NCBI RefSeq assembly: GCF_009689005.1
Contig: NZ_AP021879.1
Span: 5,209,724-5,241,723 of the forward strand
Direction: 5' to 3'
Origin: Desulfosarcina ovata subsp. ovata
GTDB taxonomy: Bacteria; Desulfobacterota; Desulfobacteria; Desulfobacterales; Desulfosarcinaceae
Length of the DNA: 32,000 nucleotides
The translations under genes were made by a program, and so were the position numbers. Within the stretch, counting starts at the first letter, position 1. Each line of letters opens with the position of its first letter. Below are positions 868 through 15,928 of this stretch, piece after piece. A model generated the notes under the pieces. That model was not told the DNA's origin and ran no database searches. It saw only the letters and a list, made by a program, of their open reading frames with translations.

Positions 868-1091
868 AATCCTTGGCAGATTTTCACATCAAACCGTACG
901 AGTTCCTTTATTAACCAATGGATAGGTTTGATCAAAATTTCTGATACAGAGAGCCAAAAATGAAAAAATTCATCGGCTGGCTAATTGCGTACAGTTTTGT
1001 TTCACTTTTTGATCATAACCTGAACTAAATTTTTCGAAGAACTGATCGAATTGCCATGCTGGTACAAACCTGAACCGCATAATTACAATTG
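1..1091 (+). mobile_element. Partial insertion sequence, right end approximate
   Basis: Transposase ORF followed by about 225 nt of AT-rich tail. Composition switches sharply to GC-rich coding DNA near 1090 (cataattacaattgct|ggggggaaaagggcc). The left end lies outside the window, so terminal repeats cannot be compared. Confidence 0.3.
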
Positions 1092-2691: not shown

Positions 2692-2750
2692 AATCGGTCA
2701 AAACTCCTTGTCGTCAGCCATCGGTTTGAATCGCTGCCGCGTATCCCAGT

Positions 2751-2777
2751 GGCATAATGGGGACGTCTCTCATTATC
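2751..2777. repeat. REP-like palindromic unit at the 3' flank of the RAYT gene
   Basis: GGCATAATGGGGACGTCTCTCATTATC: ATAATG/CATTAT stem around a GACGTC-centred imperfect palindrome. It is the inverted partner of 3838..3858 and overlaps the transposase stop codon. Confidence 0.7.
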
Positions 2778-3805: not shown

Positions 3806-3837
3806 ATCAAATATTGAGAGGCAAATCAAGTTGATTA

Positions 3838-3858
3838 GATAATTAGAGACGTCCCCAT
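3838..3858. repeat. REP-like unit at the 5' flank of the RAYT gene (inverted relative to 2751..2777)
   Basis: AGATAATTAGAGACGTCCCCAT has the reverse complement ATGGGGACGTCTCTAATTATCT. This matches ATGGGGACGTCTCTCATTATCT of the other flank at all but one position. Confidence 0.7.
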
Positions 3859-3938
3859 CCTCCCCTTCCCCCATCCTCCCCAAACGTTTGGTTGATGAAC
3901 GATTCGAAAGATTGCTGAAAGGATCGTCCCTCCTCGCC

Positions 3939-4010
3939 AAGTAACCGCGTATTGCCGATGACGGTGAGGCTGGAGAGCAGCATGGCCGTGGCGGCGATCC
4001 GTGAGGTGAG
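3939..4010 (-). pseudogene. Orphan copy of the last ~22 codons of the P-type ATPase gene (direct repeat of 13481..13552)
   Basis: 3947..4010 matches 13489..13552 at 61 of 64 positions, on the same strand. It encodes ...TAMLLSSLTVIGNT, like the ATPase C-terminus, and has no upstream coding continuation. Confidence 0.8.
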
Positions 4011-4032
4011 GAAGAGAAGATCTTTCGATGTT

Positions 4033-4093
4033 CAACAACGTTACTAATTCAGCCGACGAAAAAAGCCGCGCGGCTGAATTAGTCTTGTTGGGC
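4033..4093 (-). other. attC-like recombination site at the end of the higBA cassette
   Basis: The minus strand reads GCCCAAC (fits RYYYAAC) AAGACTAATTCAGCCG cgcggcttttttcgt CGGCTGAATTAGTAAC GTTGTTG (GTT core). It is a 61-nt imperfect palindrome. The R''-like end overlaps the last codons and stop of higA. Confidence 0.55.
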
Positions 4094-4387
4094 CAAGTGC
4101 TCTGACCAAGGTTTAATCTTATTAAGCAATGGTGCAAGAGTGATTTCTGCAACTTCCGTATCATATGCAGCCTGAGCACGTAGCCAATACCCGTTAGACA
4201 AACCAAAGAAACGGCACAAACGTAAATCCGTATCAGCTGTAATTGAACGTTTATTGGAAACGATCTCACTGATACGCTGGGCGGGAACACCAATCTCCTT
4301 GGCCAAACGATATTGGCTCAGTCCCATAGGCTTTAAGAACTCTTCTAACAAAATTTCACCTGGAGTGACGGGATCAAGTTTTTTCAT
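4079..4387 (-). CDS. higA: HigA-family antitoxin (XRE-type HTH)
   Basis: PGEILLEEFLKPMGLSQYRLAKEIGVPAQRISEIVSNKRSITADTDLRLCRFFG is the typical HigA/VapI HTH pattern. The gene lies 12 nt downstream of the toxin gene. Confidence 0.85.
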   Translation of the reverse strand: MKKLDPVTPGEILLEEFLKPMGLSQYRLAKEIGVPAQRISEIVSNKRSITADTDLRLCRFFGLSNGYWLRAQAAYDTEVAEITLAPLLNKIKPWSEHLAQQD

Positions 4388-4399
4388 ATTAACCTCTCC

Positions 4400-4678
4400 T
4401 CAGTGGTAATCCACGATTTCAACATTTTCTGCACCTGCATCTGTCCAATTGAAACAGACTCGCCACTGATCGTTGATGCGGATGCTGTATTGACCAGCAC
4501 GATCCCCTTTGAGCGCTTCAAGATGATTGCCGGGTGGTACTCTTAAATCATCAAGCAAATTAGCAATTTCGAGCTGCCTGAGCTTGCGCCGAGCGACCTT
4601 TGCAATGTTATTGAATTTCTTGACATTAGTGCCTCTTGATAGCGATTCAGTATATTTGCATTTGAATGATTTAATCAT
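4400..4678 (-). CDS. higB: HigB-family toxin (RelE/ParE superfamily, plasmid maintenance system killer)
   Basis: 92 aa, with the motifs LRVPPGNHLEALKGDRAGQYSIRINDQWRVCF...VEIVDYH characteristic of HigB. The toxin-first gene order is typical of higBA. Confidence 0.85.
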   Translation of the reverse strand: MIKSFKCKYTESLSRGTNVKKFNNIAKVARRKLRQLEIANLLDDLRVPPGNHLEALKGDRAGQYSIRINDQWRVCFNWTDAGAENVEIVDYH

Positions 4679-4685
4679 ATATCAC

Positions 4686-4714
4686 ATAATAACGCATGGC
4701 ATGATTAACGTCAA
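4686..4714 (-). promoter_or_regulatory. Candidate sigma70-type promoter for higBA
   Basis: The minus strand reads TTGACG-17 nt-TATTAT, with the -10 ending 7 nt before the higB ATG (a near-leaderless layout). This is a sequence match only. Confidence 0.3.
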
Positions 4715-4860
4715 ACGTGATTATGATTGCCAACGCCACGCTCATTAACTGCAAGGGCAATGCTGAATTTTAATTTGCCAAGGCCGCCCCGCCCTGGCGG
4801 TCTAATTCCGGGTAAAGGCACCGGTTACCCAATTATCAATTCCTTTGGGCATCATTTTCT

Positions 4861-4907
4861 TTGACAACGATTGAATGTGTATGTATTGTTAGATTGATAC
4901 ATATTCA
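4861..4907 (+). promoter_or_regulatory. Candidate vapBC promoter with overlapping operator-like inverted repeat
   Basis: TTGACA (4861-4866)-17 nt-TATTGT (4884-4889). The inverted repeat TGAATGTGTAT (4872-4882) / ATACATATTCA (4897-4907) brackets the -10. An AAGGAAGG SD precedes ATG 4925. Confidence 0.35.
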
Positions 4908-4924
4908 AGGAAGGCAAAAGAATT

Positions 4925-5119
4925 ATGCGAACCAACATTGTTATCGACGACGAACTTATCAATGAGGCCATGGCACTCAGTCAAATAAAAACGAAAAGGG
5001 CTGTGGTTGAAACAGGGCTCAGGCTTCTGGTTCAAATTAAAAAACAAGAACGGATAAAAAATTTCCGTGGAAAACTGAAATGGGAGGGGCATCTTGATAC
5101 ATTGAGGTCGGATCAATGA
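4925..5119 (+). CDS. vapB: VapB-type antitoxin (type II TA)
   Basis: 64 aa; MRTNIVIDDELINEAMAL... is typical of the small VapB family. The stop overlaps the vapC start (ATGA). Confidence 0.8.
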   Translation: MRTNIVIDDELINEAMALSQIKTKRAVVETGLRLLVQIKKQERIKNFRGKLKWEGHLDTLRSDQ

Positions 5120-5514
5120 TTTTGGTCGACTCATCCGTATGGATCAATTATTTCAATGGACTTTCAACCTGGCAGACAAACCTGCTTGACGACTACCTCT
5201 CCAGCATTCCCATTATTATTGGCGATTTGATTCTGACGGAAGTCCTCCAGGGGTTCAAATCAAACAAAGATTACGAAACCGCCAGGGATTTACTCAGTGC
5301 GCTTCAATTTCGCCAAATTGGGGGATATGCCGTCGCCATCCAAAGTGCTCAAAATTACAGGACCCTCAGAAAATCAGGGGTTACCATTCGAAAAACAATC
5401 GATGTAATCATCGGGACATTTTGTATCATGGAGGGATTATCGCTGCTCCATGATGATCGCGATTTTGACCCGATGGTATCATACCTCAACCTGAAAACAC
5501 CATCTCCGCAGTAA
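5116..5514 (+). CDS. vapC: VapC PIN-domain toxin
   Basis: MILVDSSVWINYF (first acidic PIN residue). Downstream residues (...GDLILTEVLQG..., ...LLHDDRDF...) fit the PIN ribonuclease pattern. There is a 4-nt overlap with vapB. Confidence 0.9.
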   Translation: MILVDSSVWINYFNGLSTWQTNLLDDYLSSIPIIIGDLILTEVLQGFKSNKDYETARDLLSALQFRQIGGYAVAIQSAQNYRTLRKSGVTIRKTIDVIIGTFCIMEGLSLLHDDRDFDPMVSYLNLKTPSPQ

Positions 5515-5516
5515 AA

Positions 5517-5578
5517 GCACCATCACCTGTAAAATCAGTCTCGTCTGAGAAGTAAGTAAGGCTATTGGCGGAAAAGAA
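5517..5578. repeat. Second, shorter copy of the vapC-downstream / ATPase-3'-end junction
   Basis: agcaccatcacctgtaaaatcagtctcgtctgagaagtaa parallels 13447..13486 (tccaccatcacccgtaaaatcagtcccgtctgacaagtaa). About 25 nt of weaker similarity to the ATPase 3' end follows. Confidence 0.5.
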
Positions 5579-5643
5579 TGTCCCCATTAGCCCCAGATCT
5601 AAAATTGTAAACCGGAAATCCGACGAACGTCCCCAATGCCCCC
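5576..5643. repeat. Two REP half-site remnants at the left junction of duplication copy 2
   Basis: gaatGTCCCCAttagCCCC (5576-5594) and gaacGTCCCCAatgCCCCC (5625-5643). Compare gagacGTCCCCAtcctCCCC (3846-3865) and gagacGTCCCCAactgCCCCCC (7706-7727). Confidence 0.4.
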
Positions 5644-6492
5644 GTGATTGCCGATCGCCGACTCGTAGCGTTCGATGGCCTTGGTAATGTATCCCTGCCA
5701 GAAAAGCACTTCGGAGTTGGCCAGGGCCACCTGGACGCGGACGTCAGCGGGGAAATCGTGGTCAGCCAGCATCTGCCAGGCCTGCTCCAGATATTCGTTG
5801 GCTTCGTCGGCCCTGGCGGTTTTGATGTAGGTCTTGGCGATCAGTACCATCAGCCTGACCTTGCGCACGGGGTCACCGACCGTGGCGCAGAATTCAAGCG
5901 ACCGTCCCAGGAATTTTCTCTGGATATCTTTGGACAGCGCTGTGTCCCGGCAGGTACAAAGACCGACGGTGGCATCGATGAAGGTTTCCTGCGCTACCGG
6001 ATCGAGCGTTTCCGTCTCCATGGCGTCCAGGACCATTCGATAATAAGCGGCGGCATCGATCGGCAGGTTCAGGCCAAGGCAGTAGTGCCCCGCCTGGACC
6101 AGTTCCTTGAAATGGCGCACAGGCAAACCGGAAACCTGGTAAACATAAGCGAGACTCAGCCATCTTTTGGTGTCATCGGGCAGGTGGTCGCATACACCGG
6201 CGATGGCCCGCCGGGCGGCGTTGTGCAGCGCCTTCGCCGGAACCCGGCTGATAAAGTCACCCGCCGCCTTGGGATCGGACAGATAGTAGTACCCGGCCCC
6301 CTTTTCCAAATACCGGTGCAAATAACCGGCTTTAACCAACGCCTCGACAAGCTGAAGAACCCGGACCGGGGCCAGGTCGGTAATGGCGCACAGCACATCC
6401 AGGGAAATCGGCGGGGGCAGCAGTGACAGAAGCAGATAAATTTCCTGATTCTTTTCATCCATGCCTGGGAACTGTTCCGCAACCCGGTTCAT
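5599..6492 (-). pseudogene. Truncated duplicate (first 283 codons) of the 970..2691 helical-repeat gene
   Basis: The translation is identical to the N-terminus of the 573-aa protein up to ...ESAIGNH. It then diverges into 14 unrelated residues where the duplication ends (5644). Confidence 0.8.
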
Positions 6493-6551
6493 AATCGGTC
6501 AAAACTCCTTGTCGTCAGCCATCGGTTTGAATCGCTGCCGCGTATCCCAGT

Positions 6552-6637
6552 GGCATAATGGGGACGTCTCTCATTATCGGCATAATGGGGACGTCTCTCA
6601 TTATCTAAATGGCATAATGGGGACGTCTCTCATTATC
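6552..6637. repeat. Tandem array of three REP-like units
   Basis: GGCATAATGGGGACGTCTCTCATTATC occurs at 6552, 6579 and 6611, with unit lengths of 27, 32 and 27 nt. Copy 1 has a single unit at the equivalent place. Confidence 0.9.
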
Positions 6638-7665
6638 TAAATAATTGAATCAATCAGCACGTATCCTTCGCATGCGGCTATGGCTTCGCCTCTTCTAACG
6701 GCATAGCCGATGCCCGACACCGTCATATCAAGTGCCCGGGCAAGCTCGGTTTGGGAAAGGCACAGCTCGCTTGCACACCAGTAGCAAAATAGACCCCGGG
6801 CATCCGCGCGTTTTTTGGGGCGGCCCTTTTGGAATATCTCTTCCTTATCGATCCCAAATAGCTCGGCGACCCTTTCGGCAACACGGTTTATATCGTAGCC
6901 ATGCCGTTTGAGTTCATAGCGCCGTTCAAACCGTTCTTTGGCTTGGGACAAAACCGACAATACAAAATCCGAATCACCAAGAATGCGTTCATCGCCTTTT
7001 ATACGGTCCATTCCTTTCAGTCGCATCTTTTTAACTTCCGACCATCCGCCCAGGCTGCGAACCAATCCTCCCCCGACCAATTCAGGACGACGTCCCATAG
7101 CAACTCCGGCTTGGATATAGTCAAGGTAAGCCTTGCGCGCCTTCGCCACTTTTTTTCCAAAACAGCCAAGAACATAAGCGCCGTCCTGCCAGCTACAATC
7201 ATCGACTCCCACCAATAATCGGTGGCCGCTGAATGGATAATCTGTCAACGCCCTGAAGTCCTCAACCATGCCAGCACGCAATGGATTGAGATGAATATAG
7301 CGCACCAGTTCCAAAAGATAGGCGTCTTCCTGACAAATAATGGATTTGTACCGGTTCTGAAACAACTGGCCGTGGCGTTTATGTCGGCGGTTGAAACTTA
7401 CCGCATATCCGGTGAGCAGCCGCTGCATCAAGCTTACGAGCCCGTCAGGGCCTGAGCGAAATAAAAAATGGGCGTGGTTACTTAGCAAAACCCAAGCATA
7501 ACATCTGGTTTGCGTCTGCGGAACCAACTGATCAAGCCGATCGACAAGATTCTGCTTGTCGGTTGTATCCCGGAAAATGTTTTTTCTTTCGATCCCCCGG
7601 ATGATCACGTGATGCAAAATCCCGGGAGCGTCTAATCGGGCTAACCGTGGCATGGCACCTTTCAT
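6637..7665 (-). CDS. REP-associated tyrosine (HUH/Y1) transposase with C-terminal HTH, copy 2
   Basis: ORF 6637..7875 trimmed to the ATG equivalent to copy 1 (MKGAMPRLARL). It differs from copy 1 at 9 amino acids, with the same HUH and Tyr motifs. The upstream in-frame extension crosses the REP unit and was discarded. Confidence 0.8.
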   Translation of the reverse strand: MKGAMPRLARLDAPGILHHVIIRGIERKNIFRDTTDKQNLVDRLDQLVPQTQTRCYAWVLLSNHAHFLFRSGPDGLVSLMQRLLTGYAVSFNRRHKRHGQLFQNRYKSIICQEDAYLLELVRYIHLNPLRAGMVEDFRALTDYPFSGHRLLVGVDDCSWQDGAYVLGCFGKKVAKARKAYLDYIQAGVAMGRRPELVGGGLVRSLGGWSEVKKMRLKGMDRIKGDERILGDSDFVLSVLSQAKERFERRYELKRHGYDINRVAERVAELFGIDKEEIFQKGRPKKRADARGLFCYWCASELCLSQTELARALDMTVSGIGYAVRRGEAIAACEGYVLIDSII

Positions 7666-7697
7666 AGCAAATGTTGAGAGGCAAATCAAGTTGATTA

Positions 7698-7718
7698 GAT
7701 AATTAGAGACGTCCCCAA
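7698..7718. repeat. REP-like unit at the 5' flank of RAYT copy 2
   Basis: AGATAATTAGAGACGTCCCCA is identical to 3838..3858 as far as the duplication boundary. Confidence 0.7.
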
Positions 7719-7726
7719 CTGCCCCC

Positions 7727-7818
7727 CGACAACCTGCTTTTTGTGAGGCTGCCGGATTTACGAAAGCGTAATTAAACGCTTGCAAATAATACAAAGTTGG
7801 CAAACGCACCGTTGTTTG
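7727..7818 (-). other. Weak attC-like candidate abutting the REP unit
   Basis: The minus strand reads AAACAAC ggtgcgtttgcc ... AAGCGT ttaatt ACGCTT ... cagGTTGTCG. The termini fit the AAC...GTT pattern of the better sites, but stem complementarity is poor. Confidence 0.2.
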
Positions 7819-7919
7819 GTGGTACTTGCGACACAGCCACTTAAAACAAAGCAACGCCTTGAAAAACAGTAACATAAAGCGAAACGGGAGGCAGCCTATG
7901 GCGAAAAATAATTAAAATG

Positions 7920-7981
7920 AAACAACGACTGCCAAAGCGTAAAGCGCTGTTTGCTGCATTCTGCAACAATGTTTGTTGATG
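7920..7981 (-). other. attC-like candidate
   Basis: The minus strand reads CATCAAC AAAcattgttgcagaatGCAGCAAACAGCGctttaCGCTTTGGCAGTC GTTGTTT. It is 62 nt, with the same AACAA...CGTTGT termini as the 4033 and 8191 sites. The stem is imperfect. Confidence 0.3.
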
Positions 7982-8190
7982 CAATGCTGATTTTACCAAA
8001 AAAACCACAAAAAACAAGGCGAGATGTTGCCGAATGCTGAAACAGTGAAACTTTTAAAATGCTTGCCGAAGCTGACGCTCAAAAAAGCAGCAGAAAACGC
8101 CGGCAAAAGCGATAACAGGCAAATATTTGCAACGCTGTTAGAAAAATAAGCGGTGGAAAACACACCCCAAAATTAAGCATGCGAGAAGGT

Positions 8191-8255
8191 TTACAACGCC
8201 CGGCTCTGGGGCTGCATGGAGCGCAGCGTAATGCAGTCCCTAGCAGCCGCTTGTT
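8191..8255 (-). other. attC-like site of the Thoeris-like cassette, larger part (interrupted by the group II intron)
   Basis: The minus strand reads AACAAGCGGCTGCTAGGGACTGCAT tacgctgcgctcc ATGCAGCCCCAGAGCCGGGC GTTGTAA. It is an imperfect palindrome with unpaired bases, as in attC. TTGTT on the plus strand directly precedes the intron 5' end. Confidence 0.5.
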
Positions 8256-10327
8256 GTGTGCCGGGCACGGCACACATCTTAAAAGTGAGCCAAGCATATC
8301 AGTCTGTTGGATCGCTTGGCAAGTCTTAGACCCAGCCCGATGGAGGCGAAGGGTGTAGCGACATGGCAACTGGGTATCCGGCAACGGTGCCTGGGGAGGA
8401 AGCCGCCCTGCTGCGGCAGGGCCGTCGCGAAGGTACGGGGTGACGAACAGAAATCGAGTCAGGCGCGCATCTGTGGGACCAGCCTGCAACACAAGGTTAA
8501 GTCCTCTATCCATCTCAGGCAGTGCTCGTATACTCGGCGCTTACGTACCGAAAGATGTGTGTTTACCCCGGGAGGCCCGCTGCATCTCGGGACTTGTCGT
8601 GTGAAATTGCCGGTAGGGGGGATTCCGGCCACCAAAACCCCCGGCATCGTCGGAAGACCGGCTCCTGACCGGCGATGAGCCAAACTCCGCTATGGAGAGG
8701 GACACGAAACCAAAGGATCCGGCGGCGGCAGATGATCCGAGTGAGCAAACCGCAAGGTGCGCCCACCGTGCAGCGGGAGTCAGCAGAGGGCATAATGTAA
8801 CCGGAGGAAACGAGATGCGCGAGCTACCCGCGGGTCAAGCGTAACAGGAGGCTCACCCCGGTGAAAGGCCCGAACGGTGCCCGGCCCGAATGGTACGGGT
8901 AAATGAAAATGACCATTAGGAGACGTGTACTTATGAACATAAAGCCACAGCAGATGGAAATGTTTGTAGCGTCGCGGCTTGCCGAAAGTCTGGGAGGCAG
9001 AGAGCAGTTGTTGGAGTTGATTCTCGAACGACGTAATGTGCTCAGAGCAATGAACCAGGTCGTTGCCAATAAAGGCGCCCCGGGTGTGGACGGCATGAAA
9101 ACCAACCACTTGAAAGGGTACCTGAAAAGGCACTGGCCGAAGATCAAGCAGGACCTGCTAAATGGGGATTATCGTCCCTTACCGGTCAGAAGGAAGGAGA
9201 TCGACAAACCGGATGGCGGTGTCCGCCTGCTTGGTATCCCCACGGTATTGGACCGCCTTATCCAACAGACGATAGCTCAGGTATTGGAGCAGATCTGGGA
9301 CCCGACCTTTTCTGAGTACAGCTACGGATTCAGACCAGGACGATCAGCCCATGACGCTGTCCTACAAGCCAAAGGCTATCTGCTGGACGGGTACACCCAC
9401 GTGGTTGACATGGATTTGTCCAAGTTTTTTGACCGAGTTAACCACGACCGGCTTTTAAGCCGGCTGGCCACCAGGGTCCGGGACAAACGGGTCTTGAAAT
9501 TGATCCGCCGGTACCTTACGGCCGGAACGATGATCGGGGGGCTTGTCAGTCCCAGCATAGAAGGAACGCCCCAGGGTGGTCCTCTGTCGCCGTTGCTCTC
9601 CAACATCGTACTCGATGAACTGGATAAGGAATTGGAGAAGCGGGGTCACCAATTCGTCAGGTATGCTGACGACTTCAGGATCTACTGCAAAAGCCGGAAA
9701 GCCGCCGAGCGTGTGAACAAGAGCATCACGAAGTTCATCACCGCGAAGCTCAAGCTCAAGGTGAACGAGGAGAAAAGCGCAGTGAGCCGACCATGGCTCC
9801 GCAAATTCCTGGGATTTACCTTTATCAGTATGTGTGGACAGACCAAGATCCGGATCCACCGGAAAACAATTTCACGTTTCAAGGAGCGAGTCCGGGAACT
9901 GACGAACCGTAATCAAGGGAGAAGTCTGAGCCAGATTATCAAAGATCTGAATCAGTACCTGATTGGCTGGTGGAACTATTATCGCCTGACAGAAGCCAGG
10001 CACCTGTTCAAGTCACTCAATGGCTGGATCATCCGCCGGCTGCGGTGCGTTGTCTGGAAACAATGGAAAAACCCCAGGACCAAGGTCCGAAACCTCAAAA
10101 AGCTTGGCATTGCGCATAAGGACGCCATGCTTTGCGGTAACGCCCGCAAAAAGTACTGGCGCATGAGCAAGGTCAAGTGGGTGATATTTGCTCTACCAAA
10201 CCGTTACTTCTTCGAACGAGGACTATTCCTGCCTGCTCAATAACCTTCCTGATCAGCCGAACCGCCTTGGTACGCGATCCGTATGCCGGGTGGTGTGGGA
10301 GGGGGTGGCCGCGAGGCTACTCCCTAT
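8256..10327 (+). mobile_element. Group II intron, bacterial class C (IIC, attC-targeting type); 3' end approximate
   Basis: The 5' end is GTGTGCCGGGCACGG. Domain V (10259-10297) reads GAACCGCCTTGGTACGCGATCCGTATGCCGGGTGGTGTG. From memory, both resemble the Oceanobacillus iheyensis IIC intron (GUGUGCCCGGCAUGG...; DV GAACCGCC...GGUGGUGUG with a CGC triad). Domain VI reads GGGAGG...GCUACUCCCUAU with a candidate bulged A. The RT ORF sits where domain IV is expected. Confidence 0.8.
8903..10243 (+). CDS. Group II intron reverse transcriptase/maturase (no endonuclease domain)
   Basis: RT blocks are present, including GVDGM, LGIPTVLDRLIQQ, SYGFRPGRSAHDA and the catalytic RYADDFRIY, followed by a maturase X-like tail (LIGWWNYY). 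Its short length fits En-less class C proteins. An alternative start is ATG 8933, preceded by AGGAG. Confidence 0.9.
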   Translation: MKMTIRRRVLMNIKPQQMEMFVASRLAESLGGREQLLELILERRNVLRAMNQVVANKGAPGVDGMKTNHLKGYLKRHWPKIKQDLLNGDYRPLPVRRKEIDKPDGGVRLLGIPTVLDRLIQQTIAQVLEQIWDPTFSEYSYGFRPGRSAHDAVLQAKGYLLDGYTHVVDMDLSKFFDRVNHDRLLSRLATRVRDKRVLKLIRRYLTAGTMIGGLVSPSIEGTPQGGPLSPLLSNIVLDELDKELEKRGHQFVRYADDFRIYCKSRKAAERVNKSITKFITAKLKLKVNEEKSAVSRPWLRKFLGFTFISMCGQTKIRIHRKTISRFKERVRELTNRNQGRSLSQIIKDLNQYLIGWWNYYRLTEARHLFKSLNGWIIRRLRCVVWKQWKNPRTKVRNLKKLGIAHKDAMLCGNARKKYWRMSKVKWVIFALPNRYFFERGLFLPAQ

Positions 10328-10362
10328 CCCGATAGGTGCAATCAGGCTATTAGTGAAAGGAA
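10328..10362 (-). other. Residual R''-side stub of the split attC, between the thsB-like stop and the intron 3' end
   Basis: 35 nt lie between the inferred intron end (…CTCCCTAT) and the TAA of the TIR-like gene. Joining it to 8255 restores ...GGG|AACAAGC, comparable to GCCC AACAAGA of the higA attC. Confidence 0.35.
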
Positions 10363-10932
10363 TTAACAAGGATAAAAGTACTCATCAGCCTCTTTCTTTG
10401 TATTTACCATAAAACCTTCATTTTCAAGCGCTTTTTTGATTAACGCTTTTTTGTTGGGAATATGGAGCGTTGGAACTGAATCCATTGAATCTCGGAATTT
10501 GGGCAATTTATCCCAAAGGTCTTTTATCTGCTTCTTGATCGTTTTCGATTGACAGTTAATGATGTCTGATTTTTCTTTATACTCTGGGTATACAACTATA
10601 ACCGGCAAGCCCAATGTATTAATGCCGTAGTCAATCTCTTCACGAATTGCCTTAGAGCTCTTCGTTACTGAACTTAAGAACAGTACTATGTTTTTGGATT
10701 TGCTTAGCCGCTCTCTAATTCTTGGCTTTAACGTTTTTTCCCAATCACTGCCATCTCTAACATTATAGTTTTTGTTGTGAGAATCATTAAATGGGAACGC
10801 AGAGTCGCCACCTTTCCAAGCTCTTAACATGCTATAGCTTACGAAGTCTTTCGTTGCATGAGCACCCAAACCTCCTTCAGTAAAAGGTTCGCTGACGTAA
10901 AACGCTGAATAGTTTCCGTTGCGATATGCCAT
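10363..10932 (-). CDS. thsB: TIR-like (DUF1863 / ThsB-type) protein
   Basis: The pattern YSAFYVSEP...YSMLRAWK...FPFNDSH...LKPRIRERLSKSKNIVLFLSSVTKSSKAIREEIDYGI..LGLPVIVVYPEY fits the ThsB / MTH538 TIR-like family layout. A strong AGGAGG SD precedes ATG 10932. The gene is AT-rich. Confidence 0.7.
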   Translation of the reverse strand: MAYRNGNYSAFYVSEPFTEGGLGAHATKDFVSYSMLRAWKGGDSAFPFNDSHNKNYNVRDGSDWEKTLKPRIRERLSKSKNIVLFLSSVTKSSKAIREEIDYGINTLGLPVIVVYPEYKEKSDIINCQSKTIKKQIKDLWDKLPKFRDSMDSVPTLHIPNKKALIKKALENEGFMVNTKKEADEYFYPC

Positions 10933-10974
10933 TTCTCCTCCTAATTCTATAAGTCTTGTTTTTAGCGCTAATAT

Positions 10975-11811
10975 TTAAAGCCCATTGTTGGACGATTTAA
11001 TATCGAGTAAATTAATAGTATCCATTTTATCTGGATGAATAATAATAGTTAGCTTTGCTGGATACTTGAATCGCATCTCACTAATCCTGAATGTCCAAAG
11101 CATGATCTTAAGCAAGTCTTCATCACTGATATTTTTGTGTTCTTTAATCCGCGTTATTCCTGATCCAAAAATCGGTACCGAAACGCTTTTTTGTGCGTAG
11201 ACTCTATTTACCCTGTCCCAGAAGTTAATAAGAAAGCTGAGATATTCCGGCATCGTTAACCGAGCTCGGTTTTTATCATCAAATTTCGAAAAAGCTGTTA
11301 AAAGATACTCACCATATACACAAATGGAGCCAATTTCGAAACGAGTCTTTTTCCCGCTCTTTCTCTCCGGATTTTCGCCAACAACATCTTCATCTTCGAA
11401 AGGATAGTTTTCGATATGACGATCAAGATCAACAACCGAGGTGTCAAGATGGCTATTAATGAATATGCCGTTCAGTGAGTTGCTAGATATAATTTTGTCA
11501 TCCACTTGCGTATCTAAATATTCATTAAATGCTATGACTTTAAAATCAGGTTGCTCAAATATATCCCCTTTTTTTATCGTGACATCACTTCCCTCGATTT
11601 TAGTGTGAATCTGCTGCAAGTTGTTAGATCTGACCCACAGAGCCACATAAACGAATAAAAGTAATATTAGAAATATGCCGCCCACCGCGAGCTTGCACTC
11701 TTTGGGTATCTCAACAAATATAAATGTAAGCGATGCCACTACACTTATTACAGAGACAACTTCAAGAAATTGCCTGAAAATTCTCTTATCCAGAAAATTT
11801 ACCTTTGCCAA
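10975..11811 (-). CDS. thsA: Membrane-anchored Macro-like domain protein (type II ThsA-like effector)
   Basis: Two N-terminal hydrophobic helices (VVSVISVVASLTFIFV; LAVGGIFLILLLFVYVALWV), then macro-like landmarks: KKGDIF, KVIAFNEYLDTQVD, PIFGSGITR. The start is TTG, with AGGGAG upstream. A 42-nt gap separates it from the TIR-like gene. Confidence 0.6.
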   Translation of the reverse strand: MAKVNFLDKRIFRQFLEVVSVISVVASLTFIFVEIPKECKLAVGGIFLILLLFVYVALWVRSNNLQQIHTKIEGSDVTIKKGDIFEQPDFKVIAFNEYLDTQVDDKIISSNSLNGIFINSHLDTSVVDLDRHIENYPFEDEDVVGENPERKSGKKTRFEIGSICVYGEYLLTAFSKFDDKNRARLTMPEYLSFLINFWDRVNRVYAQKSVSVPIFGSGITRIKEHKNISDEDLLKIMLWTFRISEMRFKYPAKLTIIIHPDKMDTINLLDIKSSNNGL

Positions 11812-11867
11812 AGGCTTTCTCCCTTAATCTTGCCAGCCTGATCTTGGCTGATACCATTTATACGCAC

Positions 11868-11874
11868 ACCTAAC
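11868..11874 (-). other. Candidate attI core / cassette junction (GTTAGGT)
   Basis: The minus strand reads GTTAGGT, a perfect fit to the integron core GTTRRRY. It sits between the first cassette ORF and the intI promoter. GTATAAC/GTTATAC repeats at 11894, 11958 and 11978 could be accessory binding sites. Confidence 0.35.
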
Positions 11875-11918
11875 AAGTTATTGTATTGTTTCGGTATAAC
11901 TACGAAAGTTAAAAAAGC

Positions 11919-11946
11919 TTGACATGGATTTCAGTTCAAATATAAT
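11919..11946 (+). promoter_or_regulatory. Consensus sigma70-type promoter upstream of intI
   Basis: TTGACA (11919-11924)-16 nt-TATAAT (11941-11946), about 57 nt upstream of ATG 12003. Confidence 0.45.
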
Positions 11947-12002
11947 CAGTTCTAACTGTATAACTCCAAATATGAATGTTATACGGAAAACTGGGATAAC
12001 CC

Positions 12003-13310
12003 ATGAAAGCTATTCCAAACCACCTACAAGCATCCTATGATGCGTATTTGACCGCAAAAGGCATTCCTAAGCAGCACCATTTCAATTATAGAAAGTGGTT
12101 GCGTTATTATCTGGACTTTTGCTCAAAATATGGACACATTCATTCCAACCCGCAAAGCCTGATTCAATTTGGCAATAAGCTGAAGGAAAAGAAACAGACA
12201 GCCTGGCAAATCAGGCAGGCGTCAGATGCAATTGCAATTTATTACGAAATTCAGGAACAAAAACAGGGGCCTCAATATAAATTTCACCAAGTAAACGAAA
12301 AAACAACCCAATTTACAATAAAAAAAGAAACCCCCAAAGCTCAAAACGCCGATTGGACGAACGTCTTCAAAGGTTTGACATCGGAAATAAAGCTAAGGCA
12401 CTACTCACCAAAAACGTTGGCCTCTTATAGCGGTTGGGCGCGAAAACTGCAAAGCTTTGTGAAGAGCAAAGATCCTAAACTGCTGTCATCCCAGGATGTT
12501 AAAAAATTTTTAACCCATCTGGCAGTGGAACGAAATGTATCCGCGTCCAGCCAAAACCAAGCTTTCAATGCACTTCTGTTTCTTTATCGGCACGTTCTTA
12601 AAACCGAATTCGGTGAATTAAAAAATATTCCCAGGGCCAAACGGAAACCCTATATACCTGCCGTATTATCTCGCGAAGAGGTTGACGCGGTTATTGGAAT
12701 GCTCCATGAACCGTTCGATTTAGTTGCCAAGCTGCTCTATGGATGCGGGCTTCGTTTATCTGAATGCCTGCGGCTACGTGTCCAGGACATCAACTTTGAA
12801 AGTGGCGTTCTGACCATCCACGACGGAAAGGGGAAAAAGGATCGTTCTGTTCCTCTTCCGAAGACGATCATTTCGGAACTAAAAATCCAGCTGGAAAAAA
12901 TCGTCGAGTTACACCAAAAGGACCTGGATATCGGATATGGCGGAACATTTCTTGTGGGAAGACTGGATAAGAAATACAAAAATGCAGCTAAAGAATTGGT
13001 GTGGCAGTGGTTTTTCCCAGCGAAAAACTTGACGCTTGTTCCCGATGAAGGCCAATACAGACGATACCACCTGCACCCTACCCACGTTCAAAAAGCCATA
13101 AGAACCGCCGTAAGAACGGCGAAAATTCCCAAGCGCGCATCGGCACACACGTTTCGTCACAGCTATGCAAGCCATTTGCTATTGGCCAACTATGACATCC
13201 GTACCATTCAGAAACTCCTTGGCCACAGCGATGTGCGCACAACCATGATTTACACCCACACAATAGAAAGCCGTACCATTAAAGACGCCGCCAGTCCGCT
13301 TGATTTTTAA
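12003..13310 (+). CDS. intI: Integron integrase (IntI-type tyrosine recombinase) with ~115-aa N-terminal extension
   Basis: It aligns along its length with IntI1 as remembered. Shared blocks include LYGCGLRLSECLRLRVQDI, HTFRHSYASHLL and LGHSDVRTTMIYTH. The IntI-specific insertion is present: LDKKYKNAAKELVWQWFFPAKNLTLVPDEGQYRRYHLHPTHVQ (IntI1: [41 protein letters not shown]). Confidence 0.9.
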   Translation: MKAIPNHLQASYDAYLTAKGIPKQHHFNYRKWLRYYLDFCSKYGHIHSNPQSLIQFGNKLKEKKQTAWQIRQASDAIAIYYEIQEQKQGPQYKFHQVNEKTTQFTIKKETPKAQNADWTNVFKGLTSEIKLRHYSPKTLASYSGWARKLQSFVKSKDPKLLSSQDVKKFLTHLAVERNVSASSQNQAFNALLFLYRHVLKTEFGELKNIPRAKRKPYIPAVLSREEVDAVIGMLHEPFDLVAKLLYGCGLRLSECLRLRVQDINFESGVLTIHDGKGKKDRSVPLPKTIISELKIQLEKIVELHQKDLDIGYGGTFLVGRLDKKYKNAAKELVWQWFFPAKNLTLVPDEGQYRRYHLHPTHVQKAIRTAVRTAKIPKRASAHTFRHSYASHLLLANYDIRTIQKLLGHSDVRTTMIYTHTIESRTIKDAASPLDF

Positions 13311-13329
13311 CAGCCACACATTGATCAAA

Positions 13330-13445
13330 ATACACGACCGGTTCAAAGTCAAATGGGAGGGTGACCTTGATACATTGAGGCCGGACCAATGAATTTGATC
13401 GACTTATTCGTATGGATCAATTTTTTCAATGGTTTTTCAACTTGA
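13330..13445 (+). pseudogene. vapBC remnant (3' end of vapB, first ~18 codons of vapC, then internal deletion)
   Basis: aaatgggagggtgaccttgatacattgaggccggaccaatga and atgaatttgatcgacttattcgtatggatcaattttttcaatgg parallel 5089..5170 of the intact vapBC. The sequence then jumps to the vapC-downstream sequence. Confidence 0.6.
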
Positions 13446-13465
13446 ATCCACCATCACCCGTAAAA

Positions 13466-15928
13466 TCAGTCCCGTCTGACAAGTAAAAGCGTATTACCGA
13501 TGACGGTGAGGCTGGAGAGCAGCATGGCCGTGGCGGCGATCAGTGGGGTGAGAAGGCCGCTCATGGCCACGGGGATGCCGATGAGGTTGTAGATCCAGGC
13601 ACACCATAGATTCTGGGTGACCTTCCGGTTGACCCGTCGGGAGAGTAAGAAAACATCCATCAACTGGGCCGGATCGCCGCGCATGAGGGTCAGATGGGCG
13701 GCCTCGGCGGCCAGGGCCTGGCCGTTGTAAAGGGCCACGGCCAGTTGGGCGCGGGCCATGGCGGCTGCGTCATTGATGCCGTCGCCCACCATGGCCGGCC
13801 GGTGTCCCTGTTGGATCAGTTTGTCGATGAAAGCGGCCTTGTCCGCCGGCAGCAGGCGCCCTTGGGCGACATCCGCACCAAGGGCCTCGGCCACTTCACG
13901 GGTAACCCGCTCGCCGTCCCCCGAGATGACGGCAATCGGACGGTATTCGGCCTTCAGGCTGTCGATCAAGTCCGGCACCGTTGGCCTGAGGCTGTCACCG
14001 AAATACAGGCTGGCCGCCGGCTGGCCGTCTACGCTTATGAACACTTGTGAGAGGGCCGTTTCCGTTTGCCCAACCGGTTTGCCCGTCGCCATTTCTGCAG
14101 TTCCCCAGGCAAACTGCCGGCTGCCGATGCGCAGGTTTTTTTTCTCCAAACGTCCCGCGATGCCATCGGAAGATACAACGATATCGTCGACGCGGGCCGG
14201 TGAGATGCCCTTTTCCCTGGCATGGGCGTTGATGGCGCGGGCGATTTCATGCTCCACGGATTGTTCCAGGCCGGCGGCCCAGGCGATCACCTGATCCGGA
14301 TCAAGGCTTGGACGGCATTCTACCTGACTCAGTTGCCAGCGGCCGCGGGTGAGCGTCCCGGTTTTGTCGAACACGATGCTGCTTGTCGTGCCGGCCCGTT
14401 CGAAGGCTTCAATGTCACGAACCAGGATGCCCCGGCGGCCGGCCAGGGAAATCCCGGCCAGGCGGGCCATGGGAATGGCCACGCCCAGGGCGCAGGGGCA
14501 GGAGATGACCATGACGGTCACGGCCCGAACCAGCGACTGGTGCAGGGAGTAACCGATCATGGCGCAGGCGATCCCCGTACCGGTGGCGAGCAGGACGATC
14601 AGGGGCACGAATCCGCGCAACATTCGGTCCGTGCGACCCTCGAAATCACTTTTCTGTTCCAGGCTGCGGGTCATAATGGCGATCATCTGGCCAAGCACGC
14701 TGGCCTCGCCAATGGTCTCCGCCATGGCGATCACACGGCCGTCGATGACCCGCGTACCGCTCTTGATGATGTCACCGGCCTTTACTGCCACCGGCCGCGG
14801 CTCACCGGTGAGGGCGGATTCGTCCACGCGGGCGCTGCCCGACACCACCCGCCCGTCCGCCGGCACGATTTCGTCGGCCTCGACGGCAAAACGGTCGCCC
14901 GCGGCCAACTGCCCGATGGACGCATACCGTCCCGCCGGCCACCCATCGGTGACGATGCGTACCTTGTTCGGCTGCAGGGCGAAAAAATTGTCCAGATCCC
15001 GGCGAACCCGGCCACGGGCCTGCAGTTCGAGCAGTTTGCCCAGCAGCACAAGGGTGATCAGCATGCTGGCCGTATCGAAGTACAGGTGGATGCTGCCCGT
15101 CAGCCAGTTGAAGAGGCTGTAAACGTAGGCGCAACCGGCCGCCATGCCCACCAGGGTCTCCATGCCCGGCGCCAGATGCACCACACCGAACCAGGCTTTG
15201 CGCAGCATGGGGCCGCCGCCGTAAACAAAGGCCACCGTGGCCATGAGAACAATGGGCAGGGAAATCTTGAACACAGCATCATCGGTGAGATCGGTGAAGA
15301 ACCCGGCGTACAGCGCCCAGGAGAGCATCATCACGTTGGCCGAGAAAAGGCCGGTGATGATCAGTCGGATCAGTTCCCGGCGAAAGGCCGATTGCCCGTC
15401 ACTGCCGGCCTCGGTGTCATGGACCGGGTACCCCAGGCGGGCGACGGTTTGGCGGATCGCTTCCGGATCGGTGCGGTCGGGCCGGTAATGGCAACGCAGG
15501 CGGTCGGTGGAGAAATGGCAGGTGGCCTGTTCCACGCCCTCCATCCGTGAAAGAGCCGTTTCGATCACCCAGGCACAGGCCGGGCACCACATGCCGTCCA
15601 CCTTCAGGTCAACACTCAGGGTGTCCGGTGGATCGGATGCGTGGCCTGCTGTCTCCGCTTGGGAGGGCGAGGCGTGCTTCGTCGGCGTGGTTTCCTGCAT
15701 GCGGCGCAGATCCGCCTCGCTGGCCGGAATCACCCCGGCGGCCACGCATTGGCGGAACAGGTCGCTTTCCCGGAAACGGGCCGGGTCGTCCACCTCGGCC
15801 GACTCCAGCAGCATGGTGTAGACCATCCGGCAGCCCTGGCAGCAGAAGGAGAGCGTGTGACCATCGATGGTGTGGGTGATCGTTCCGTAGCGTAACGGCA
15901 GACCACATAAATCACAGTGGGAGGGCAT
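13466..15928 (-). CDS. ccoI: Copper-translocating P1B-type ATPase of the CcoI/FixI type
   Basis: The N-terminus has the Cys-rich CDLCGLP...FCCQGCRMVY motif typical of FixI/CcoI. Also present: an MxCxxC-like GMWCPAC, the CPC motif SCPCALG, DKTGTLT and GDGINDA. ATG 15928 is preferred over the listed TTG 15940. Confidence 0.85.
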   Translation of the reverse strand: MPSHCDLCGLPLRYGTITHTIDGHTLSFCCQGCRMVYTMLLESAEVDDPARFRESDLFRQCVAAGVIPASEADLRRMQETTPTKHASPSQAETAGHASDPPDTLSVDLKVDGMWCPACAWVIETALSRMEGVEQATCHFSTDRLRCHYRPDRTDPEAIRQTVARLGYPVHDTEAGSDGQSAFRRELIRLIITGLFSANVMMLSWALYAGFFTDLTDDAVFKISLPIVLMATVAFVYGGGPMLRKAWFGVVHLAPGMETLVGMAAGCAYVYSLFNWLTGSIHLYFDTASMLITLVLLGKLLELQARGRVRRDLDNFFALQPNKVRIVTDGWPAGRYASIGQLAAGDRFAVEADEIVPADGRVVSGSARVDESALTGEPRPVAVKAGDIIKSGTRVIDGRVIAMAETIGEASVLGQMIAIMTRSLEQKSDFEGRTDRMLRGFVPLIVLLATGTGIACAMIGYSLHQSLVRAVTVMVISCPCALGVAIPMARLAGISLAGRRGILVRDIEAFERAGTTSSIVFDKTGTLTRGRWQLSQVECRPSLDPDQVIAWAAGLEQSVEHEIARAINAHAREKGISPARVDDIVVSSDGIAGRLEKKNLRIGSRQFAWGTAEMATGKPVGQTETALSQVFISVDGQPAASLYFGDSLRPTVPDLIDSLKAEYRPIAVISGDGERVTREVAEALGADVAQGRLLPADKAAFIDKLIQQGHRPAMVGDGINDAAAMARAQLAVALYNGQALAAEAAHLTLMRGDPAQLMDVFLLSRRVNRKVTQNLWCAWIYNLIGIPVAMSGLLTPLIAATAMLLSSLTVIGNTLLLVRRD

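Follow-up and report, generated by a model that had tools for sequence, protein, structure and literature searches.

Can a complete two-gene signalling defence system be carried as one integron cassette, and can the copy in Desulfosarcina ovata subsp. ovata still leave its place? The locus that raises this question lies in a stretch of 32,000 nucleotides of contig NZ_AP021879.1, here called the window, to which all positions below refer. A preliminary description of the window, made from its letters, had proposed that a type II Thoeris-like pair of genes forms the integron cassette next to intI.

The gene pair and its products

The two genes lie on the same strand in the order thsA, thsB, and the gap between them is 42 nt:

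10975-11811, minus strand: thsA, 278 aa, TTG start with the Shine-Dalgarno sequence AAGGGAG ahead of it
10363-10932, minus strand: thsB, 189 aa, ATG start, TIR-like protein

These are exactly the two AT-rich minus-strand genes of the preliminary description. In the GC profile of the window, the GC content is 0.365-0.38 across 10401-12000, compared with 0.50-0.57 leftward and 0.60-0.70 past 13600, and for the cassette as a whole, delimited below, it is 0.377 compared with 0.614 in the right flank. The toxin-antitoxin pairs higBA and vapBC neighbour the cassette region.

Residues 77-259 of ThsA match ThsA_Macro (Pfam PF20016) over the entire profile (positions 1-183 of 183), with an E value of 4.2e-64 and a score of 216 bits at a cut-off of 25, and the PADLOC profile PDLC00413 (ThsA) matches the protein end to end, N-terminus included (residues 1-278 of 278, 1.8e-127). 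Two N-terminal transmembrane helices at about residues 15-34 and 40-60 are called by Kyte-Doolittle hydropathy, where 19-residue windows exceed 1.6 at about 14-37 and 35-65. With the crystallized E. coli CFT073 ThsA (PDB 8V6Q; 2.5e-100) the macro domain shares 71% identity, with 8V6S 67% and with 8R66 45%. By its sequence, the nucleotide-binding pocket of the Macro domain is conserved: N96, D100, I108, S109, N114, R150, K154 and I219 are all present, with the same numbering as the residues that contact ADPR or IAD in the ThsA Macro pocket according to PMC11204291.

ThsB matches the Pfam family PF08937 (ThsB_TIR) at 7.3e-26 (90.9 bits) and the PADLOC profile PDLC00421 at 3.9e-76. Among solved structures, it is 69% identical to PDB 9UV0 (2.4e-88) and 67% identical to 3HYN (6.7e-84). 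The first of these is presumably a Bacillus ThsB, as it was deposited beside 9UUZ, which has the same aligned sequence as 8R66. EcThsB2 is matched at E = 1e-5 only, and E99 of the window protein is aligned with the catalytic E89 of EcThsB2. Tyrosines Y3, Y8 and Y12 are all kept in 9UV0 and 3HYN and may include the active-site tyrosine that, in a ThsB of the His-ADPR type, is hydrogen-bonded to the catalytic Glu.

[quoted passage not shown] Here, 'type II' follows the literature definition, i.e., a system with a TM-Macro effector, and not the PADLOC numbering, in which the best profiles are named 'ThsA1' and 'ThsB1'. The domain assignments of the preliminary description, two transmembrane helices plus Macro for the 278-aa protein and a TIR-like ThsB for the 189-aa protein, are thus borne out by the Pfam and PADLOC profiles and by hydropathy. 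Its view that both proteins are divergent, so that their chemistry is open, must be given up, since both have 67-71% identity to solved structures, the pocket and the catalytic glutamate are conserved, and a signal for type II Thoeris, His-ADPR, is already published.

The pair is under purifying selection. Both open reading frames are intact and of equal length across the cassette copies described below, and dN/dS is 0.06-0.12 for thsA, when the window is compared with five other copies, and 0.01-0.05 for thsB in the comparison with other copies.

The integron and the ends of the cassette

On its right side the pair adjoins an integrase gene, and the elements from this gene to the far end of the cassette are the following:

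12003-13310, plus strand: intI, integron integrase, 435-aa open reading frame (the NCBI product has 420 aa and starts 15 codons later)
11875-12002, no strand: attI region, 128 nt separating intI (plus) from the first cassette (minus), which diverge
11874-11868, minus strand: crossover core GTTAGGT, with T 11873 as the first base of the cassette
10334-10362, minus strand: spacer from thsB to attC and start of R'', i.e., 25 nt past the thsB stop followed by ACCT (10337-10334)
8191-8255, minus strand: rest of attC, i.e., AAC of R'', L'', loop, L' and R' (GTTGTAA, 8197-8191)

IntI scores 370.9 bits with the integron integrase model TIGR02249 (cut-off 265) over residues 124-434 and is extended by about 120 aa at its N-terminus. 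Pfam finds the domains Phage_integrase and Phage_int_SAM_4, the sequence itself shows KKYKNAAKELVWQWFFP, an integron-specific stretch, along with the catalytic motifs GLRLSE, HTFRHS, LGHSDV and MIYTH, and a homology search returns 'integron integrase [Desulfosarcina ovata subsp. ovata]' with 100% identity. A consensus scan of the attI region finds a perfect sigma-70-type promoter, TTGACA-16-TATAAT (12/12), at 11919-11946 on the plus strand, facing intI. On the cassette strand, the same kind of scan, which uses the E. coli consensus and is not tuned to a host from the Desulfobacterota, finds no sigma-70-like promoter in 11812-12300; expression of thsAB, as from a Pc promoter in the integron platform, is therefore only presumptive.

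The core GTTAGGT is present on the minus strand where the preliminary description placed it, and its complement, ACCTAAC, is the R'' box of the same cassette. As a motif, GTTRRRY is uninformative, because it is seen 34 times in the window when 52 +/- 7 occurrences are expected by chance. This particular occurrence gains its meaning from the fact that similarity to four other genomes starts exactly there, while the upstream sequences are unrelated: in a five-way alignment of the window with these genomes (L002, L003, L004 and L005), the left boundary G|TTAGGTG is identical, and the attI region 11875-12002 is unrelated to what precedes the same cassette in all four. A simple site, ATAAC-TT-GTTAG, spans the crossover. 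The right boundary of similarity falls on the GTT in R' of a 69-nt attC in L002 and L004, the two genomes compared, so that G 8197 is the last base of the cassette.

Over 67 nt, the attC of the window and that of L002 are 95.5% identical, and the similarity stops at GTT. The window attC is split, with ACCT of R'' lying 2.1 kb away from the remainder (AAC...GTTGTAA, 8255-8191). That R'' is to be read as ACCT|AAC follows from L004 and from L002, where the uninterrupted cassette reads ...TAA-24 nt-ACCTAACAAACGGCTGC.... When the plus (bottom) strand is folded as DNA, positions 8185-8262 give an imperfect hairpin of -17.9 kcal/mol (z = -2.4) with two extrahelical bases, an unpaired T and an unpaired C, on its 3' arm. 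A simple scan for attC sites by AAC...GTT ends and fold energy was dropped as non-specific, since its hits, on either strand, are mostly in coding DNA of high GC content.

Copies of the cassette in other genomes

The same cassette turns up in unrelated contexts, namely in four genomes and in four contigs from metagenomes. Identity to the window is 77-95% for ThsA and 89-92% for ThsB in L002, L004, L047, L057, L058 and L064; for ThsA it is 94% in L003 and 90% in L005, whose contigs stop inside or before thsB. In every copy, whichever the host, the GC content of the cassette is 0.34-0.40. The integrases that adjoin L002, L005 and L047 are homologues of IntI with only 44-47% identity. All four metagenome copies have the same attC directly past thsB, and the attC family is found in 24 of 25 metagenome loci, mostly behind unrelated genes; in about 20 of these loci it is preceded by unrelated cargo.

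Taken together, these arrangements clearly point to a mobile cassette family, in which the thsAB pair would move by IntI-mediated recombination between attC and attI at G|TT. Members of the family to which this AT-rich cassette and its attC belong are seen mostly in Gammaproteobacteria, with one copy in a Rhodocyclaceae MAG, and D. ovata has probably acquired the cassette horizontally. Enterobacterial plasmids carry relatives of the pair with only 67-69% nucleotide identity, and the two plasmids examined have the order thsB, thsA and no integron. A search of phage genomes for the pair returned nothing relevant.

Could it be, then, that a defence pair merely happens to lie beside a tyrosine recombinase, with no integron cassette at all? 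The missing enrichment of GTTRRRY in the window (34 against 52 expected) is what one would see in such a case. But IntI passes an integron-specific model, both ends of the cassette are recombination points in independent loci, and one attC family is joined to about 20 different cargos. The shared ends and the attC family on different cargo refute a coincidental juxtaposition, to which we give practically no probability. Comparison with other loci clearly resolves the pair as a predicted integron cassette, and it is very probable that a type II Thoeris abortive-infection system, which looks functional, makes up a single 1.6-kb cassette at the first position of the D. ovata chromosomal integron. 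On this main point the preliminary description was right, now with profile matches for both proteins, an integrase recognized by TIGR02249 and boundaries set by locus comparison.

A group II intron in attC

The DNA that separates the two parts of attC is a group II intron, which the preliminary description had overlooked:

8256-10333, plus strand: group II intron, 2078 nt, antisense to the cassette, in R'' of attC, starting with GTGTG and ending with CCCGAT
8375-8562, plus strand: intron RNA domains I-IV (RF02001, 82.6 bits)
8903-10243, plus strand: intron reverse transcriptase/maturase (TIGR04416, 428 bits at a cut-off of 300)
10260-10333, plus strand: intron domains V-VI, with bulged A 10326
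8293-8322, minus strand: candidate outward promoter, TTGCCA-18-TATGCT with TG, in intron domain I, from a consensus scan

The encoded protein has the Pfam domains RVT_1 and GIIM and no endonuclease domain. The match to RF00029 has 20.9 bits, below the gathering score of 40, and is full-length, ending exactly at 10333. Comparison with the empty site puts the insertion in R'' of the bottom strand, after GTT and before AGGT, with a junction that can be moved by 1 nt, because T8255 and T10333 are both T. The site is empty in L002, in L004 and in all four metagenome loci that carry Thoeris. The best plasmid match to the intron, in S. marcescens p11663, was rejected as a guide to the intron ends because it lies in an IncC backbone outside any integron, and the ends were taken from the empty site of L002. 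Immediately 3' of thsB on the plus strand are two hairpins, 10262-10293 (domain V) and 10297-10330 (domain VI); that the latter, of 34 nt, could be domain V is excluded by the empty-site boundary and by the RF00029 alignment. The attC-like palindrome of the preliminary description is thereby corrected in part: an attC does exist, in split form, and the palindrome that was meant, which came without coordinates, is probably that of the hairpins beside thsB, domains V and VI of the intron.

The intron would have retrohomed into the bottom strand of R'' after the cassette was captured, antisense to thsAB, and the thsAB coding sequences are untouched by it. The candidate promoter at 8293-8322 is directed at the DNA beyond the cassette, in the same position as Pout of the group IIC-attC introns (PMC3001079).

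Since the intron splits R'', the present-day mobility of the window copy is doubtful, and the intron probably hampers both its excision and read-through to the downstream DNA. In the preliminary description the cassette was said to be shufflable, and this applies to the cassette family, while for the window copy excision is uncertain. In the extreme case, the intron has destroyed the function of attC, and the cassette is a fixed relic in which thsAB, whose genes may work, are locked in first position without shuffling. Consistent with this, 2078 nt of intron stand between ACCT of R'' and the remaining attC, none of the six other visible thsB-attC junctions (those of L002, L004 and the four metagenome loci) contains the intron, and introns of the S.ma.I2 type impede read-through transcription (PMC3001079). 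Yet the AAC and GTT triplets and both L arms stay contiguous, the first two bases of the intron lengthen the pairing of the R boxes, and cassette::intron units count as cassettes in the literature (PMC3001079). A fixed relic is a serious possibility to which we assign clearly less than even probability, and it refines, rather than excludes, the explanation by a Thoeris cassette.

Proposed signalling and its variants

We infer the signal chemistry and the defence phenotype, like the expression, from close homologues. The published signal for type II Thoeris is His-ADPR, which is bound by the Macro domain (10.1101/2024.01.03.573942), and ThsA binding of the related imidazole-ADPR, with ligand-induced oligomerization, is also described (PMC11204291). 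In the mechanism proposed for the window, phage infection would lead ThsB, with Glu99, to make histidine-ADPR, or an imidazole-ADPR close to it, from NAD+. This molecule would dock in the Macro pocket of membrane-anchored ThsA dimers and make ThsA oligomerize, so that its two-helix transmembrane domains cluster and disturb the membrane, or stop growth, before the phage cycle is completed. E. coli relatives of the window ThsA pair with different ThsB subfamilies, and one such system gives growth arrest with cell death undetected (10.64898/2026.01.22.701046); therefore the system of the window may differ in its exact ligand and in whether cells die or stop growing.

To exemplify, consider a signal other than His-ADPR, such as another imidazole-ADPR conjugate. 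The cassette clade joins an E. coli-like ThsA to a ThsB that resembles 9UV0 and 3HYN: ThsA is 71% identical to EcThsA and only 45% to the His-ADPR-bound BaThsA, while ThsB is 69% identical to 9UV0 and yet matches EcThsB2 only at E = 1e-5. EcThsA binds ADPR as well as IAD, and the in vitro substrates of EcThsB1 are imidazole or histamine, not histidine (PMC11204291). Moreover, thsA and thsB differ in history inside the cassette, with 95% and 82% nucleotide identity to L002. Against this stand the conserved residues of the Macro pocket and the conclusion in PMC11204291 that His-ADPR is the probable product of ThsBs similar to the single ThsB of B. amyloliquefaciens; moreover, any alternative molecule would be a minor variation on known chemistry. 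A different signal is unlikely, if by no means negligible.

It is also conceivable, but very improbable, that thsAB is mainly an addiction or stabilization module for the integron or island, like higBA and vapBC, and not a phage defence. Toxin-antitoxin pairs do occur in the same region, and ThsA is a potentially toxic membrane effector. Homologous Thoeris, however, protects from phage only once signalled (10.1101/2024.01.03.573942; 10.64898/2026.01.22.701046), antitoxin-like features are absent from ThsA and ThsB, and this analysis found no evidence in support of addiction.

Finally, the type II Thoeris reading may hold in a combined form, in which the intron insertion has a function and is no mere accident, giving an 'intron-locked' defence cassette, and the cassette clade uses a ligand slightly unlike His-ADPR. 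The split R'' would then keep the cassette, whose abortive infection is costly, fixed in the first position, where expression is best, and the outward promoter of the intron would re-drive the downstream DNA. The clade would be recognized by a gene order with thsA ahead of thsB, by a mosaic thsB allele and by a ThsA like that of E. coli next to a ThsB like 9UV0. The combination is improbable; if one of its two parts were true, it would be a small novelty for integron or Thoeris biology.

Comparison with known systems

The locus adds one clearly resolved and unsurprising example to kinds already known, and it opens no new chemistry, because both proteins are near characterized homologues. Its value is that of a fully delimited natural case in which a complete two-gene signalling defence system would move as one integron cassette, with hosts among Gammaproteobacteria, a Rhodocyclaceae MAG and Desulfosarcina and with integrases that differ. 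It backs the recent view of integrons as libraries of defence genes, and the interrupted and uninterrupted versions of the cassette are natural material for the question whether an attC intron blocks excision.

The type II Thoeris system of B. amyloliquefaciens Y2 (2TM-Macro ThsA, single ThsB, His-ADPR, PDB 8R66) has the same two-gene domain architecture, and its pocket motifs GSGITR and FNEY(F/L)DTQVDD are conserved in the window ThsA. The macro domains, however, are only 45% identical, and the window has the order thsA, thsB on an integron cassette with attC. In the TM-macro systems of E. coli CFT073 and Pseudomonas corrugata (8V6Q/R/S; PMC11204291), ThsA also has 278 aa, with macro domains 71% and 67% identical, respectively, to that of the window and ligand contacts in the same numbering. 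The E. coli system differs by its two ThsBs of other subfamilies, where the window has a single ThsB, and it is not called an integron cassette in PMC11204291.

The window intron resembles group IIC-attC introns such as S.ma.I2 (PMC3001079) in that its RT/maturase lacks an endonuclease domain, in its antisense insertion into an attC bottom strand, for which the first cassette of an array can also serve as target, and in its candidate outward promoter, which like Pout is in domain I. This likeness is one of features. The Rfam match to domains V/VI is below threshold, and, unlike IIC-attC introns, the closest plasmid-borne relative of the window intron (52% amino acid identity) lies outside an integron.

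Integron defence cassettes (BRiCs, 10.1101/2024.07.02.601719; libraries, 10.64898/2026.03.17.712381) are likewise small, promoter-poor, bounded by attC and made up of one or two genes. Cassettes with ThsB homologues, brc22 and brc23, are already described, but there the partner is not ThsA, whereas the window has the complete canonical ThsA/ThsB pair. The BRiCs come from clinical mobile integrons, and the cassette of the window from the chromosomal integron of a sulfate reducer.

Identity of the gene pair

The preliminary description named two AT-rich genes 42 nt apart on the minus strand, and both are ORFs, which together fill exactly the span that it gave:

10363–10932, minus strand: thsB, ORF of 189 aa
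10975–11811, minus strand: thsA, ORF of 278 aa, with a TTG start six bases past AAGGGAG

The GC content is 0.365–0.38 over 10401–12000 and 0.614 for all sequence right of 13466. The 278-aa ThsA matches Pfam ThsA_Macro over the full profile (4.2e-64) and, along its whole length, a PADLOC ThsA profile (1.8e-127, positions 1–278 of 278), and contains two hydrophobic stretches (approximately residues 15–34 and 40–60); the 189-aa ThsB matches Pfam ThsB_TIR (7.3e-26) and PADLOC ThsB (3.9e-76). The earlier assignments, two transmembrane helices plus Macro for one protein and a TIR-like fold for the other, are thereby confirmed.

The ThsA macro domain is 71% identical to that of E. coli CFT073 ThsA (PDB 8V6Q), 67% to Pseudomonas corrugata ThsA (8V6S) and 45% to His-ADPR-bound B. 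amyloliquefaciens ThsA (8R66). ThsB is 69% identical to PDB 9UV0, deposited as 'ThsB', and 67% to 3HYN, deposited as 'putative signal transduction protein'. ThsA is collinear in numbering with E. coli EcThsA and keeps N96, D100, I108, S109, N114, R150, K154 and I219, which are all the contacts named for ADPR and imidazole-ADPR (PMC11204291), and Glu99 of ThsB is aligned with the catalytic Glu89 of E. coli EcThsB2. From the 67–71% identity to solved structures and the conservation of the ligand contacts and of Glu99 follows that both proteins are typical and not, as had been claimed, divergent. The locus represents type II Thoeris in its canonical form.

The chemistry, put forward as open and therefore of high interest, is no valid ground for such interest, since the mechanism has already been published for the architecture with a TM-Macro ThsA and a ThsB. 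Upon infection ThsB makes His-ADPR, the ligand of the ThsA Macro domain (10.1101/2024.01.03.573942); the membrane-anchored ThsA oligomerises, driven by ligand binding (PMC11204291); and for one E. coli relative the outcome is growth arrest, not overt cell death (10.64898/2026.01.22.701046). The thsAB coding regions look functional, and we infer the defence activity of the pair, its exact ligand and its expression.

Integrase and attI

12003–13310, plus strand: intI, TIGR02249 'integron integrase', 370.9 bits (cut-off 265)

The intI product matches the integron integrase annotated in Desulfosarcina ovata subsp. ovata at 100% identity; on the IntI1-type model the ORF scores 248.8 bits, under that model's own cut-off of 435. 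At its N-terminus the protein is extended by about 120 aa (12003–12370), which include a second SAM-like stretch. Homologues of about 432 aa with this layout number in the thousands, and the few named by source are from Desulfobacterales, Thermodesulfobacteriota, Deltaproteobacteria, Planctomycetota or Chitinivibrionales.

The integrase gene is divergent from thsAB, from which it is separated by an attI of 128 nt. A promoter scan found a perfect TTGACA-16-TATAAT promoter in this spacer (11919–11946), facing intI, and on the cassette strand no match over 11812–12300 to the E. coli sigma-70 consensus, which may not be that of the host.

Cassette boundaries

A GTTAGGT core lies on the minus strand at 11874–11868. 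The GTTRRRY motif is by itself uninformative, with 34 occurrences in the window against 52 ± 7 by chance. A search for ThsA relatives, with one genome per species, gave 44 loci, four of them close:

L002, Gammaproteobacteria MAG: ThsA 95%, ThsB 92% amino acid identity
L003, Idiomarina aquatica: ThsA 94%
L005, second Gammaproteobacteria MAG: ThsA 90%
L004, Rhodocyclaceae MAG: ThsA 81%, ThsB 89%

In all four, nucleotide similarity to the window starts exactly at G/TTAGGTG (the slash marks the start), and the sequences upstream of this point are mutually unrelated. The other end in L002 reads TAA-24 nt-ACCTAAC-AAACGGCTGCTAGGGACTGCAT-TACGCTGCGCTCC-ATGCAGCCCCAGAGCCGGGC-GTTATGC, where similarity ends at the GTT of GTTATGC. 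This attC has 69 nt; its R'' ACCTAAC is complementary to the opening GTTAGGT of the cassette, as it should be in a cassette that can circularise, and its bottom strand forms an imperfect hairpin whose '' arm has two extrahelical bases. Close to the cassette, L002, L005 and the metagenome contig L047 have IntI homologues of only 44–47% identity, and therefore the same Thoeris cassette sits in different integrons. All copies of thsA and thsB are intact, of equal length and of GC 0.34–0.40, with dN/dS values of 0.01–0.12, i.e., under strong purifying selection. More distant ThsA relatives (at most 71% identical), among them those on 70 enterobacterial plasmids, with gene order checked in two, have thsB before thsA and no integron integrase. 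The shared ends across loci, the attC and the adjoining integrase are strong evidence that the identification of thsAB as an intI-proximal type II Thoeris integron cassette is correct.

At the nucleotide level thsA is 95% identical to L002 (dS 0.17; window 10363–11811 against L002 6001–7448). For the window thsB the value is only 82%; its synonymous sites are almost saturated, and it stands apart from all other copies. The window attC, unlike its thsB, is 95.5% identical. The cassette is therefore mosaic, and this pattern of identities suggests that cassette alleles have recombined. In L002 one strand carries both the IntI homologue (2390–3418) and the cassette array after it (3423–10003), which means either that the integrase is inverted or that these are separate elements.

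The attC family and its interruption by a group II intron

When metagenomes were searched with 19 nt of the attC, 25 loci were found (L046–L070). The attC family is the same in 24 of these; only four follow thsAB, while the rest follow unrelated genes. One attC family on many cargos is the pattern of homogeneous attC families of sedentary chromosomal integrons. The conserved sequence (YTAACAAGYGGCTGCTAGGGACTGCATTACGCTRCGCTCCATGCAGCCCCAGAGCC..GTTA) thus recurs after many unrelated cargo genes like the Vibrio VCR repeats, and its genome matches are Idiomarina aquatica and Gammaproteobacteria MAGs.

The window's own attC is in two pieces. On the top strand thsB is followed by ...gattgcACCT, which gives way to foreign sequence, and the remainder, AACAAGCGGCTGC...GTTGTAA, lies at 8255–8191. 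Between the pieces are:

8256–10333, plus strand: complete group II intron, 2078 nt, antisense to thsAB
8375–8562, plus strand: intron domain I–IV RNA (RF02001, 82.6 bits)
8903–10243, plus strand: intron RT/maturase ORF (TIGR04416, 428 bits; RVT_1 and GIIM)
8322–8293, minus strand: candidate outward promoter within the intron

The intron starts with GTGTG. A sub-threshold but full-length match to domains V–VI ends exactly at 10333 and includes a bulged A, which lies seven bases ahead of the 3' terminus. The insertion interrupts the bottom strand of the attC immediately past the R'' triplet GTT. A Pfam search of the RT/maturase gave RVT_1 and GIIM and no endonuclease domain. Without the intron, the Thoeris cassette measures 1599 bp (11873–10334 plus 8255–8197; GC 0.377). 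The intron is absent from all other cassette copies with the thsB-attC junction in view. The preliminary description, which does not mention the intron, had placed an attC-like palindrome beside thsB. An attC does exist, but because it is split by the intron, the palindrome adjoining thsB is most probably intron domain VI or V. The interrupted attC may or may not still recombine.

The surrounding putative island

The region 1–13400 looks like an island, of heterogeneous GC (0.40–0.62), beside GC-rich respiratory genes (P-type ATPase, cytochrome oxidase, molybdopterin oxidoreductase complex). At its left edge is a DDE transposase ORF (25–867, plus strand) with a weak Pfam DDE_Tnp_1 match. A direct duplication of about 3.8 kb (1839–3940 and 5640–7875; start-to-start spacing 3801–3860 nt) involves a TPR-protein gene, full at 970–2691 and truncated at 5599–6492, and a gene with an IS200-like Y1 transposase domain and a DnaA-C HTH domain (2777–3940, 6637–7875). 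The latter is bounded by 23–24-nt inverted repeats ATGGGGACGTCTCTCATTATCTAA (2757–2780/3835–3858 and 6586–6608/7695–7717), with extra tandem copies at 6543–6645.

Between the two copies of the duplication are two toxin-antitoxin pairs (4079–5514): higBA (4079–4678, minus strand) and vapBC (4925–5514, plus strand). An internally deleted vapBC paralogue at 13345–13486, immediately 3' of intI on the non-cassette side, is 85% identical to 5072–5171 (vapB end, vapC start) and 92% identical to 5518–5555, downstream of vapC. A second attC-like hairpin (4030–4093; z = −4.25) with perfect cores GTTCAAC ... GTTGGGC on the plus strand overlaps the higA stop; since the plus-strand 5' arm carries its unpaired bases, it is seemingly opposite in orientation to the Thoeris attC, and it may be a fragment of cassette array that was rearranged or is foreign. 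The stretch of about 480 nt between the Thoeris cassette end and the first Y1-transposase element (7718–8196) has short ORFs only, of 56 and 58 aa without Pfam matches, and no convincing attC; the cassette array seems to end or be disrupted here.

Relation to known systems

The Thoeris system was probably acquired horizontally: a GC-rich sulfate reducer would have taken it up in the form of an integron cassette, which the attC-targeting intron entered afterwards. In the openly accessible literature we found no explicit report of an integron cassette that carries a complete ThsA/ThsB pair, and we claim no priority. Defence cassettes in integrons are already known (10.1101/2024.07.02.601719; 10.64898/2026.03.17.712381), and the same is true of type II Thoeris systems and attC-targeting introns, so that all three kinds of element have precedents. 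Group IIC-attC introns can reside in first cassettes, hinder read-through and bring outward promoters with them (PMC3001079), and the window intron resembles them in its bottom-strand attC site and in its orientation antisense to the cassette.
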